Shown here in pieces: positions 26,926 through 28,692 of a stretch of 64,000 nt of DNA (its first letter is position 1; each line of letters opens with the position of its first letter). Below the pieces are notes generated by a model. That model saw only the letters and a list, made by a program, of their open reading frames with translations. It was not told the DNA's origin and did not search any database. The DNA lies in the NCBI RefSeq assembly GCF_044647545.1, contig NZ_CP172818.1. One strand, 5' to 3'. The translations under genes and the position numbers were made by a program. This DNA is from Escherichia coli (GTDB lineage: Bacteria > Pseudomonadota > Gammaproteobacteria > Enterobacterales > Enterobacteriaceae).

Positions 26926-28692
26926 TCACTGACTGATGTCAGTCACACCACCCGCCAGTTCAACCAGGCGAATAAATTCCGCCCTGTAACCCTGTTGATC
27001 TTCCCCTTTTGCCTGCTGAGCCCACTGTTTTATCTGCTGCCATGAGATTTCGTCCAGGTATTCAGAACCGCGTAACTTTTGCCCATATGCAGCTACTGCT
27101 GCGCGAAAACGCATATCTTCAGAGGGCGCGTTTATTGTTGGCCCCAGCGGGAATTCAACTAACTGACTTTCTTTTCCCTGCGGGTATTTCCAACGAATCT
27201 TTAACCAGGCAAGTTCTTTTGTTTTGTCCGATTTCGCTGATTTGTTATCCGGGGCATAGCGTAACTTATCAATTGATGCTTTTTGCCCTTTCAGCGTTAA
27301 TTCGAATAACAACGTTATATGTTTACCTGCGCCAATATCACCCGCATCAACGTTGTCGTTATTAAAATCTTCCGCCCGAAGTTGGCGCTTTTCATAACCA
27401 ATCTGACGGTATTCCGTTACCCACGCGGGGTTAAACTCAATTTGCGCTTTGACATCTTTTGCTACGCTAATCAACGTCTGCCGCATTTCACTGTTCAATA
27501 CTTTCTGTGCTTCAGCGAGGGTATCAATGTAGCTGTAGTTACCGTTGCCAACATCGGCGATTCGCACCATCATTGCCTCGTTGTAATTGCTATCCCCCAC
27601 GCCAAACGTGGACAGAGAAACACCGGACTCCCGCTGTTTTTTGACCATTGATTCAATCGATTTAGGATCGTCAATGCCGACGTTAAAATCACCATCAGTG
27701 GCCAATAAAATGCGATTGATGCCACCCTTAATAAACCCCTTCGCCGCCTGCTGATAAGCCAGTTCCAGCCCGGCACCGCCATTGGTACTGCCATCGGCAT
27801 CCAGCGAATCAATTGCGGCATTAATTTCCGCCTTGTGACTCCCGGAGATAGAAGGCAACGCAATACGGGAGTCGCCAGCGTAGGTCACGATGGCAATGTT
27901 ATCCTGCTCACGAAGTTCTTTGACCAATAATTTCAACGAAGACTGGATAAGAGGCAAACGTTCATAAGAAATCATTGAACCAGAAGTGTCGATAAGAAAG
28001 ACCAGATTAGAAGCTGGTAACTCTTCACTTTTGCGATCTTTCGCCAGGATATCAACTTTCAGCAATGTTCGCTGTTCATTCCACGGCGCAGGTGCCAGTT
28101 CGTAGCGCATAGCGAAAGGTATTGGCTTACTGGCGGGAACAGGTTCTTTATTATTGCTTTTATCATTAATAACCCAGTCTGACGGAAAATAATTCACCAT
28201 CTCCTCCACCCGCACTGCATCTGGCGGAGGCAACTGCCCATGATTGAGAAAACGGCGTACATTCGCATAACTGCCGGTGTCGACGTCAAGGCTAAATGTC
28301 GCCAACGGGTTTTGCGCTACCTGCTTAACCGGATTATCATCGAACTGCTGATAGCGAGCGGTTCCTGGATTTGCGATTTGGGAGGCTGCTTTTTCTCTGG
28401 CTGCATGTTGATATTTTGGAGCCGCCTGTAAGCGCCCCTGCAAAGCCTGTTTGTCTGAATATTGTTGCGCTTCTTGCTGGGCTAAGGCTTTTGCTTTCGC
28501 GTCTGCAGTGGCTTTAGCGGCGACGGATCTTTGCTCGGCCTCTTTTATTGCAGCATGTTGCGCGGCAAGCACTTGCTGGTCTGTGGGAGTACTGGGTTGT
28601 TGTTGCAGACTTTCCTTATTCTCAGATTCCGGCCCACATCCTGACAAAATCAAACTACTCATAAGCAACATGATTATATTTTTATTTCGCAT
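26926..28692 (-). CDS. yfbK: von Willebrand factor A domain lipoprotein
   Basis: ORF 26926..28692 minus, 588 aa; lipobox LILSGC; Q/A/K-rich linker; vWA MIDAS motif DTSGSM. Confidence 0.8.
   Translation of the reverse strand: MRNKNIIMLLMSSLILSGCGPESENKESLQQQPSTPTDQQVLAAQHAAIKEAEQRSVAAKATADAKAKALAQQEAQQYSDKQALQGRLQAAPKYQHAAREKAASQIANPGTARYQQFDDNPVKQVAQNPLATFSLDVDTGSYANVRRFLNHGQLPPPDAVRVEEMVNYFPSDWVINDKSNNKEPVPASKPIPFAMRYELAPAPWNEQRTLLKVDILAKDRKSEELPASNLVFLIDTSGSMISYERLPLIQSSLKLLVKELREQDNIAIVTYAGDSRIALPSISGSHKAEINAAIDSLDADGSTNGGAGLELAYQQAAKGFIKGGINRILLATDGDFNVGIDDPKSIESMVKKQRESGVSLSTFGVGDSNYNEAMMVRIADVGNGNYSYIDTLAEAQKVLNSEMRQTLISVAKDVKAQIEFNPAWVTEYRQIGYEKRQLRAEDFNNDNVDAGDIGAGKHITLLFELTLKGQKASIDKLRYAPDNKSAKSDKTKELAWLKIRWKYPQGKESQLVEFPLGPTINAPSEDMRFRAAVAAYGQKLRGSEYLDEISWQQIKQWAQQAKGEDQQGYRAEFIRLVELAGGVTDISQ

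Follow-up and report, generated by a model that had tools for sequence, protein, structure and literature searches.

LpoB is one of the E. coli outer-membrane lipoproteins with a disordered N-terminal linker. [quoted passage not shown] In that study the linker was taken to begin at Cys+1 and to run, unstructured, up to where the globular domain shows its first secondary-structure element, with more than 22 residues counted as long; YfbK is absent from its main text (bioRxiv 10.1101/2021.01.05.425367). The linker of Pal has been called a length-dependent spacer; a Pal variant with an 8-residue linker deletion retained wild-type Lpp-exclusion zones with unimpaired localisation and growth, and it was less sensitive to stress than a variant lacking 24 residues (PMC12826056). 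Braun's lipoprotein Lpp is helical and serves as a ruler of the periplasm. Work on periplasm size deals with RcsF and Lpp (PMC5736177). With respect to the folded part of the protein, the vWA C-terminal domain of the proposed "vWA force transducers" has been reported to resemble E. coli YfbK, which was called a free periplasmic protein in the same paper (PMC12204202).

The window analysed here, i.e., the whole 64,000-nucleotide stretch of E. coli DNA (contig NZ_CP172818.1 of assembly GCF_044647545.1), contained the yfbK coding sequence at 26926..28692 on the minus strand, where all of the features described below also lie. The open reading frame, the Pfam matches and the RefSeq annotation agreed on a 588-aa vWA-domain lipoprotein, yfbK being the RefSeq annotation of both the identical (100%) and the near-identical matches. 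The three domains of the YfbK family were present in order and above their gathering thresholds, namely the vWF_A N-terminal domain that starts the conserved core (PF12450, residues 111-212, 28057..28362; 113.4 bits against a cut-off of 25), the VWA domain (PF00092, residues 229-396, 27505..28008; 77.6 against 23.8) and YfbK_C (PF12034, residues 406-580, 26953..27477; 226.2 against 25, E=4.5e-67). The MIDAS of the VWA domain was complete (D235-x-S237-x-S239, T303 and D333) and invariant across a 70-sequence family alignment. The neighbouring genes were rbn, elaD, yfbL, yfbM and nuoN. A Foldseek search of the PDB with the AF2 model of YfbK matched ArnB, ITIH1, pilus-tip adhesins and BatB; these matches came with no residue ranges and were silent on the linker. 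In the literature that we searched, no experiment had localised YfbK or probed its linker. Two screen phenotypes have been reported for a yfbK deletion, namely a low efficiency of plate conjugation (bioRxiv 10.64898/2026.07.26.740846) and the loss of persistence induced by rifampicin (PMC5845583).

The N-terminus of YfbK, MRNKNIIMLLMSSLILSGC, opened with a basic n-region, which was followed by a hydrophobic core and the lipobox L-S-G-C. This lipoprotein signal peptide, read from the translation, covered residues 1-19 (28636..28692), with the codon of Cys19 at 28636..28638, and its sequence MRNK-NIIMLLMSSLI-LSGC fitted the [LVI][ASTVI][GAS]C pattern; NCBIfam lipoprotein families matched residues 4-32 weakly. 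The signal peptide was near-invariant between alleles, since residues 1-10 and 12-19, including LSGC, were identical in five aligned alleles. The residue at +2 after Cys19 was Gly, not Asp, and Pro followed at +3. Under the +2 rule, lipoproteins without Asp at this position are targeted to the outer membrane in a Lol-dependent manner. The lipobox and this rule together suggest that YfbK is anchored in the outer membrane and exposed to the periplasm.

Between the anchor and the core lay a real, ordinary lipoprotein tether. The earlier note had described the roughly 90 residues past the lipobox as a low-complexity, coiled or disordered linker, and a non-globular linker that joins the lipid anchor to the vWA module was indeed supported. 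The peptide it quoted was an exact match in the YfbK translation; the interval it gave, 28380..28650, corresponds to codons 15-105, while the linker proper occupies approximately 28363..28635. Residues 20-116 contained 23.7% A, 18.6% Q, 8.2% K and 7.2% E, as compared to 9.5% A and 5.5% Q in the remaining protein, and when the full protein was scanned in 25-residue windows, the ten of lowest entropy all began at residues 43-61 (2.64-2.78 bits; elsewhere 3.55±0.18). The isolated linker matched no Pfam family at E<=10, and a sequence search of the PDB left it uncovered, returning remote VWA matches whose best stretches started at query residue 201 or later.

The AF2 model left residues 1-37 unstructured and became confident from residue ~111. 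The first part of the linker, residues 20-37 (GPESENKESLQQQPSTPT, 28582..28635), was rich in S, T, P, Q and E, adjoined the lipid-modified Cys and had no predicted secondary structure (pLDDT 36-59). Residues 38-89 (28426..28581) were predicted as one 52-residue Ala/Gln/Lys/Glu-rich helix (pLDDT ~72-82), which would measure ~78 A if straight; it coincided with the lowest-entropy windows and makes up the low-complexity centre of the linker. Only seven of its residues were strongly hydrophobic. Residues 90-110 (28363..28425) formed a low-confidence flexible region with a short helix at 94-103 (pLDDT <50 for residues 90-109). Thus, 18 unstructured residues preceded any helix, as compared to the more than 22 before a globular domain in a "long" linker of El Rayes et al.; the tether of ~91 residues would be "long" if the solitary helix counts as linker and "intermediate" if it does not. 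A single-alpha-helix domain of the E/K-rich kind was rejected, since no more than three opposite-charge pairs occurred at i/i+4 and 25% of the residues were charged. The AF2 confidence for the helix was moderate, and its prediction in isolation leaves room for oligomerisation or docking to a partner.

The earlier note had also read internal near-repeats in the DNA of the linker, and this claim failed. Tandem Repeats Finder (minimum score 30) returned no rows on 28200..28800, and a repeat search with 6-nt seeds gave two-copy matches alone, at chance level (11-23 nt, 74-91% identity). The longest exact repeats in the linker DNA were 8-mers, and it contained no tract of several head-to-tail identical units such as a contingency locus would have. 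The linker did have 22 repeated 6-mers versus a mean of 13 in other segments of the gene, yet there was no excess over its own shuffled codons. All four repeat statistics fell within the range of codon-shuffled controls, where a fraction of 0.47-0.94 of the shuffles reached the observed value. Since the repeat content was no higher than in its own shuffled codons, true DNA repeats were rejected: the apparent repetition was codon composition (GCN, CAA/CAG, AAA), with no repeat structure.

The length polymorphism predicted by the earlier note was found. The E. coli linkers fell into four length classes (420, 411, 408 and 393 nt for the first 420 nt), the natural alleles having linkers of 89, 94, 95 and 98 residues, and the range across Escherichia was 89-98 aa, i.e., at most nine residues in a tether of ~97. 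Linker length might set how far the vWA domain reaches, as the earlier note proposed; this natural range is small. In 148 unique full-length Escherichia YfbK sequences, picked by the conserved start M[RL]NK[NH]II, five indel sites were recurrent, and four of them lay inside the 97-residue linker (binomial p=0.0036). These four sites comprised residues 56-57, residues 59-66, an AK indel nested within the latter, and residue 102. Of 15 gapped columns, 11 fell in the linker (Fisher p=1.6e-6). Five-allele protein and DNA alignments and the gap blocks of the 148 sequences placed a hotspot at residues 55-68 (RSVAAKATADAKAK, 28489..28530), which is built of consecutive GCN and AAA codons and where alleles differed by 2, 2 and 8 residues. 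Allele comparison located the one-residue indel at residue 102 at 28387..28389, within a region (residues 90-110) that had alternative sequence cassettes, AAPKYQHAAREKAASQ, EAPTFARAAKAKATH or AAPAHISTATASAAPRIS, among alleles. The sole common indel outside the linker was a four-residue insertion specific to the window-type allele (aligned as SNNK or KSNN, residues 178-181, 28150..28161), in a low-confidence loop, where the AF2 blocks spanning residues 171-190 had pLDDT values of 65 and 54. The expectation that indels would be confined to the linker was therefore borne out at four recurrent sites and broken at this one.

The linker indels sat in GCN/AAA codon runs where the lost unit duplicated its neighbour, with flanks such as AAAGCA|AAAGCC, GCC GCC GCC GCT, and 18 nt between the copies of GCNAAAGC. 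This context matches the footprint expected of replication slippage, which was probably the mutational mechanism. On the other hand, length was not labile. Each length class corresponded to one allele lineage in 59 of 59 genomes, a sample spread over 2,531 hits and complemented by ~200 protein-cluster sequences, so that rare length variants may be missed. All 44 anchored cluster members had a class-typical linker length, and 30 distinct 94-aa linker sequences differed by substitutions and had no indels. No close isolates differing in linker length were seen in these three sets. Since length tracked allele lineage exactly, the indels were rare events rather than a sign of hypervariability. Thus, the proposal that the linker is prone to length variation by slippage held as far as the concentration of polymorphism and the slippage-like flanks are concerned, but neither a repeat tract nor labile length accompanied them. 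Two candidate cases of linker variation were discarded: a frameshifted deer-strain allele (1727 nt) had lost 1 nt within the VWA domain, at nt 880, and the odd protein lengths in the 90% clusters (569-596 aa) reflected alternative start calls or truncation at contig ends, the linkers being of class-typical length in every case.

Substitution patterns set the linker apart from the core. Linker dN was 0.02-0.13 (0.05-0.13 without the two closest alleles) with dN/dS of 0.27-0.51, as compared to dN of 0.000-0.015 and dN/dS of 0.04-0.10 in the VWA domain. The linker was therefore under relaxed purifying selection; its dN/dS was well below 1, so it was not neutral. Three of the four compared allele pairs had a nucleotide identity of 80-88% in the linker and 92-94% in the core. 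Synonymous divergence was in roughly the same range in the linker (0.07-0.33) and in the core domains (0.02-0.35). Within single pairs, THO-003 and MS1170 had dS of 0.017 in the VWA domain and 0.31 in the linker, and K-12 and CFSAN027346 had 0.025 and 0.33, respectively. Recombinant linker sequences were seen as well. The yfbK alleles are recombination mosaics in which the linker has been reshuffled. The elaD-yfbM block diverged by 4-8%, while the flanking rbn and nuoN mostly diverged by 2-3% (rbn by ~5% in two of four strains). An intact yfbK was lacking from about half of the complete genomes of E. coli, the gene being deleted, IS-disrupted or frameshifted.

Beyond Escherichia, the core alignment of 150 representatives across bacteria began at query residues ~105-117. 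The region from membrane anchor to core in the homologues ranged from 67 to 981 aa (median 182), was compositionally biased and could not be aligned; distant homologues of the core had low-complexity linkers at the same position that were unrelated in sequence. A cytoplasmic N-domain with a transmembrane helix was present in 87 of 139 top representatives with the YfbK core. Among 30 such N-domains tested, 15 matched zf-HC2 (best E 7e-8) and nine matched RskA_N, suggesting that half of them resemble anti-sigma factors. A lipoprotein homologue with ~60% identity (P0131) kept the Ala/Gln/Lys composition, which hints at selection on linker character beyond the lack of a fold.

We consider it likely, with a probability of roughly 0.7, that residues 20 to ~110 of YfbK form a passive non-globular tether that connects the lipid anchor to the conserved ligand-binding module. 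This tether was ordinary and weakly constrained, with no repeat-driven switch. It would consist of ~18 disordered residues by the acylated Cys, a long solitary Ala/Gln-rich helix and a flexible hinge, probably serving as a spacer. Selection appears to act on bulk properties alone, i.e., on the linker being soluble, having no fold and keeping its approximate length, in which case the sequence of the linker would drift faster than that of the core. Replication slippage at short cryptic GCN/AAA codon repeats might produce occasional in-frame indels that are tolerated, and homologous recombination would then spread the linker variants among strains.

Several other explanations were weighed against the passive tether. 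The linker could be an adaptive ruler whose length is tuned by selection to bring the vWA module to a set envelope layer or partner, the 89-98-residue classes being different settings. The indels do lie in the central part of the predicted helix, each residue of which would alter reach by ~1.5 A; the classes are held at high frequency in different lineages; and precedents for length-dependent lipoprotein linkers exist for RcsF/Lpp (PMC5736177) and for Pal (PMC12826056). However, the range of at most nine residues amounts to ~13 A as helix in a tether of ~97 residues, of which ~40 are flexible, and the equivalent region varies from 67 to 981 aa across the family. Moreover, ancestry suffices as an explanation of the classes, since length co-varies fully with the allele lineage, and the loss or breakage of yfbK in about half of the genomes argues against a finely tuned function. 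We therefore found this reading unlikely. It was similarly doubtful that helix 38-89 is an oligomerisation stalk, a coiled coil of the Lpp-like or Ala-coil kind that multimerises YfbK. A long unbroken helix is predicted, L42, I49, L70 and L84 of the window allele share one heptad position, and in the best register hydrophobic residues or Ala fill half of the a/d positions, but V/L/I/M/F occupy just 5 of 16 a/d positions in that register, natural indels of 2, 4 and 8 residues move the heptad register between alleles, and the helix sequence is unconserved beyond close relatives. The continuous in-register heptads of a canonical Lpp-like coiled coil were not found in this helix.

Diversifying selection on an exposed linker epitope targeted by phage, colicins or host immunity would account for the linker being the most divergent part of the gene, for its recombination history of its own and for the greater divergence of the whole elaD-yfbM block than of rbn and nuoN. 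On the other hand, dN/dS never exceeded 1 and nothing pointed to surface exposure. Since synonymous divergence of the linker was roughly in the range of the core domains, ancient alleles and relaxed constraint suffice, and we regarded such selection as very improbable. Still harder to accept was a functional periplasmic ruler that is the lipoprotein counterpart of anti-sigma-type or motor-coupled vWA linkers, where the length classes or hyperdivergent sequences alter the reach of the MIDAS module and are kept by phage, conjugation or host selection rather than by drift. The least credible proposal was a contingency locus, in which a slippage-prone repeat tract often shifts linker length or an on/off state. 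The slippage-like footprints of indels at short repeated codons are what it would predict, but with no tandem repeats, repeat content at the codon-shuffled expectation, no length variation within lineages and, in the only frameshifted allele that was inspected, a break in the VWA domain and not in the linker, the repeat and length results effectively refuted it.

Regarded as a passive tether, the linker adds YfbK to the many outer-membrane lipoproteins with a non-globular N-terminal tether, which carries little weight alone. The natural alleles of 89, 94, 95 and 98 residues could be ready-made variants for the study of this uncharacterised vWA lipoprotein. Its context, i.e., the loss of yfbK, the mosaic alleles and the anti-sigma-like homologues, may prove of greater use than the linker.

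In comparison with described systems, the anti-sigma-like single-pass relatives share the three-domain core of YfbK and a low-complexity, unalignable linker between anchor and core. They differ in having a cytoplasmic N-domain of ~60-130 residues and a transmembrane helix where YfbK has a lipobox, and their linkers, which reach 981 aa with a median of 182, exceed that of YfbK in length and are rich in Pro, Ser, Gly and Ala, as compared to Ala and Gln in YfbK. In the vWA force transducers, an N-terminal transmembrane helix bearing an SHLS motif likewise stands in place of the lipobox, and the elaD, yfbL and yfbM genes next to yfbK include no ExbBD/TolQR-type motor genes; neither the SHLS helix nor the adjacent motor of a TolA/TonB-like or force-transducer system was found for YfbK. 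Domain II of TolA, an Ala/Lys/Glu-rich helical segment, connects a membrane anchor with a globular domain at the C-terminus, and its likeness to the YfbK linker would be one of composition. Lpp, a regular heptad coiled-coil trimer, is lipid-anchored and largely helical, as YfbK is predicted to be, and in both proteins changes in length would alter reach; unlike in Lpp, the heptad pattern of the YfbK helix is weak and its register is broken by natural indels. The lipoproteins with disordered linkers are similar to YfbK in having a non-globular segment right after the lipid-modified Cys that parts the anchor from the folded domain. By analogy, linker composition and length may be broadly tolerated in both, with spacing or reach and Lol handling as proposed roles. 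In contrast to them, YfbK is predicted to be unstructured over ~18 residues alone, the bulk of its tether being the 52-residue helix and the hinge, which would make it longer and more helical than the linkers described by El Rayes et al.

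The open reading frame of yfbK (26926..28692, minus strand) encoded 588 amino acids upon translation of the window, and E. coli genomes in RefSeq with the same or nearly the same DNA had it annotated as yfbK. Its neighbours were rbn, elaD, yfbL, yfbM, and nuoN. The N-terminus, MRNKNIIMLLMSSLILSGC, was a lipoprotein signal peptide; its lipobox was LSGC, in which the Cys is residue 19. It is established that the residue after the lipidated Cys predicts lipoprotein sorting (the +2 rule). Since the +2 residue of YfbK was Gly, this rule predicts sorting to the outer membrane. According to Pfam, the protein contained the vWF_A (residues 111-212), VWA (229-396), and YfbK_C (406-580) domains. 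A MIDAS-dependent binding module would fit the Foldseek matches of the predicted structure (ArnB, ITIH1, pilus-tip adhesins, and BatB) and the residues D235, S237, S239, T303, and D333, which were invariant in a 70-sequence alignment.

The linker between Cys19 and the core (residues 20-116) was indeed of low complexity at the protein level, and the peptide quoted in the earlier note was found letter for letter in the translation; the span discussed there (28380..28650) covered codons 15-105. Ala and Gln made up 23.7% and 18.6% of the linker versus 9.5% and 5.5% of the remaining protein. When 25-residue windows were ranked by entropy over the whole protein, the 10 lowest all started at residues 43-61 (2.64-2.78 bits, against 3.55±0.18 bits elsewhere). 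The internal near-repeats that had been described in the linker DNA were not borne out. Namely, Tandem Repeats Finder reported no tandem repeats there at its most permissive score, a pairwise repeat search returned two-copy matches only (11-23 nt, 74-91% identity), exact repeats were 8-mers at longest, and four repeat statistics showed no excess over codon-shuffled versions of the segment (n=300). The seeming repetition was compositional and reflected a restricted codon set (GCN, CAA/CAG, AAA). Antisense to the linker, an 81-aa TTG-start ORF (28451-28696, plus strand) was called mechanically and is a candidate only; its Cys and Ala richness was expected from the reverse complement of GCN/CAG codons.

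The predicted length polymorphism was present in Escherichia alignments and centred on the linker. Five yfbK alleles from complete genomes encoded proteins of 588, 584, 581, 580, and 575 aa, and the linker, counted from Cys19 to FDDNPV, was 89, 94, 95, 96, 97, or 98 residues long. Among 148 unique full-length Escherichia sequences, recurrent indels mapped to residues 56-57 (SV, AA, or absent), to residues 59-66 (all 8 deleted in the K-12 class; a 2-residue AK indel is nested here), to residue 102 (1 residue), and to residues 178-181 (window 28150-28161; KSNN or SNNK depending on the alignment). In all, 4 of 5 recurrent internal sites (binomial p=0.0036) and 11 of 15 gapped alignment columns (Fisher p=1.6e-6) were located in the 97-residue linker; the 178-181 indel lay outside it. 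This indel was in a loop of the vWF_A N-domain that was modelled with low confidence, and the insertion was found only in the window-type allele (19/148 sequences). The surrounding DNA (AAT GAT AAA AGC AAT AAT AAA) resembles an old tandem duplication of 12 nt. The same 148 sequences also included an alternative C-terminal tail. Two further proteins could be either rare variants or errors of assembly: P0011, a single E. coli sequence of 615 aa in which 34 residues, IDTLSEAQKVLNSEMRQTLITVAKDVKAQIEFNP, were duplicated in tandem where VWA meets YfbK_C, and P0006 (591 aa), which had an apparently duplicated N-domain and lacked the signal peptide.

The earlier note had attributed such length change to slipped-strand events, and the indels did carry a slippage-like footprint, but ongoing hypervariability was not seen and length was fixed by lineage. 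In DNA alignments, all linker indels fell within Ala/Lys codon runs and the missing unit duplicated its neighbour: the AK indel involved the adjoining units AAAGCA and AAAGCC, the AA indel distinguished AGC GCC GCC GCC GCT from AGC GCC GCC, and K-12 had lost 18 nt between two GCNAAAGC copies. This is the footprint expected if replication had slipped at short cryptic repeats. A search with the initial 420 nt of yfbK was positive in 2,531 of 5,426 complete E. coli genomes. Fifty-nine full-length rows, evenly spaced through these matches, had a matched length of 420 (n=16), 408 (n=19), 411 (n=2), or 393 nt (n=22), and each length corresponded to a single identity class, meaning a single allele lineage. 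Within four large 90% clusters, all 44 members with both anchors had a linker length typical of their class (89, 94, or 98 residues); where total lengths differed, the cause was an alternative start call or a truncated contig. No indel variants occurred among 30 distinct substitution variants of the 94-residue class, and the break in the one frameshifted allele checked was in the VWA domain. Therefore, linker length was not labile and reflected a handful of old events. A contingency locus was effectively excluded, given compositional repeats and discrete, lineage-fixed length classes.

The surrounding locus, rbn-elaD-yfbK-yfbL-yfbM (24500-30400), was a presence/absence mosaic over the 5,426 genomes, with the full block in about 1,603 and yfbK in about 46% of them. 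Elsewhere, elaD was absent with yfbK kept, yfbK alone was absent, or both were absent. O157:H7, BL21, O103, and O145 lacked yfbK and part of yfbL, retaining the last 38 nt of yfbK, and some copies of the rbn-yfbM locus carried IS1 or IS100 insertions. In elaD-less strains, similarity to the window stopped at yfbK nt 1740 (window 26926-26952, the last ~9 codons) and YfbK ended in ...GLAKDLDNSQN rather than ...ELAGGVTDISQ; the boundary of the elaD deletion or replacement thus lay within the yfbK 3' end and created the alternative tail. In the window and most strains sampled, yfbM directly adjoined nuoN (30389-30449), whereas K-12-type genomes had yfbN, yfbO, and yfbP in between, a further insertion/deletion polymorphism beside the locus.

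The alleles of yfbK were unusually divergent (dS 0.15-0.35). Divergence between lineages was 4-8% in the elaD-yfbM block and mostly 2-3% in the flanking rbn and nuoN (rbn ~5% in two of four strains). The gene was a recombination mosaic. Breakpoints would lie between linker and core because pairs nearly identical in the VWA domain differed strongly in the linker (THO-003 versus MS1170, dS 0.017 and 0.31; K-12 versus CFSAN027346, 0.025 and 0.33). Recombinant linkers were also seen, in which a K-12-type start was joined to a B2-type remainder.

Diversifying selection on the linker was a minor possibility. Nei-Gojobori comparisons of the five alleles gave linker dN of 0.02-0.13 and dN/dS of 0.27-0.51, against 0.000-0.015 and ≤0.10 in the VWA domain. 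Linker dS (0.07-0.33) spanned roughly the same range as that of the core domains (0.02-0.35). Taken together, these values indicated relaxed purifying rather than positive selection. Oligomerisation through a coiled coil was likewise a minor possibility. An AlphaFold2 model built from the 70-sequence alignment (mean pLDDT 83.7, pTM 0.78) left residues 1-37 unstructured (pLDDT 36-59), placed a single unbroken helix at residues 38-89 (pLDDT about 72-82), gave low confidence to residues 90-109, including a short helix, and showed a confident globular core from residue ~111. Therefore, the linker is predicted to be composite: about 18 residues without structure are followed by a helix some 78 A long and then by a hinge. 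A coiled coil was not convincing for this helix, since only 7 of its 52 residues were V/L/I and, in the best heptad register, only 5 of 16 a/d positions held a strongly hydrophobic residue. With only 3 i/i+4 opposite-charge pairs, the helix was also rejected as a single alpha helix of the E/K type. A Pfam search with the linker alone gave no family up to an E-value of 10, and none of the PDB sequence matches covered the linker, their best stretches beginning no earlier than query residue 201.

Among 1.84 billion representative proteins searched, there were 7,132 homologues at E<=1e-30. In most of the best 150, the alignment started at query ~105-117, right after the linker, and the part before the core spanned 67 to 1,096 residues. 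Judging by the first hydrophobic segment in 139 of the best representatives, 31 had an early signal or lipobox-type segment, and in 87 a transmembrane helix came after a cytoplasmic N-domain of about 60-130 residues. Thirty of these N-domains were compared with Pfam and matched the anti-sigma factor domains zf-HC2 (15/30, best E 7e-8) and RskA_N (9/30). In all 119 representatives with a hydrophobic segment ahead of the core, the stretch from it to the core was 67-981 residues long (median 182), compositionally biased, and free of Pfam matches. The linkers of lipoprotein-type relatives were unrelated, measured about 70 to 140 residues, and were rich in Pro, Ala, Ser/Thr, or Gln; P0131, a ~60%-identical lipoprotein homologue, retained an Ala/Gln/Lys-rich one. 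Throughout the family, the tether that joins anchor to core was thus variable and not conserved. Most of the best representatives with this core (P0121-P0270) were single-pass membrane proteins rather than lipoproteins, and their low-complexity linkers in the periplasm reached ~980 residues. This suggests that the core generally acts in the periplasm as a tethered module for sensing or binding.

Length polymorphism of YfbK was small, discrete, lineage-fixed, concentrated in the linker, and marked by slippage footprints. The best reading, with a probability of about 0.7, was that the linker is a passive tether under weak constraint and belongs to a lipoprotein that is dispensable. The functional hints for yfbK were two screen hits only, low plate-conjugation efficiency (bioRxiv 10.64898/2026.07.26.740846) and loss of rifampicin-induced persistence (PMC5845583). 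El Rayes et al. [quoted passage not shown] A 2025 paper on TolA/TonB evolution described inner-membrane-tethered "vWA force transducers" with a YfbK-like C-terminal fold (PMC12204202), but E. coli YfbK fell outside that group because it lacked their transmembrane helix and motor neighbours. Adaptive tuning of linker length was a minor possibility, and Pal offered a comparison. Removing 24 residues from the Pal linker disturbed Lpp exclusion and gave intermediate stress sensitivity, whereas removing 8 residues kept wild-type Lpp-exclusion zones and gave less sensitivity (PMC12826056). Since Pal tolerated the shorter deletion better, the natural 9-residue range of the YfbK linker is plausibly of little consequence.
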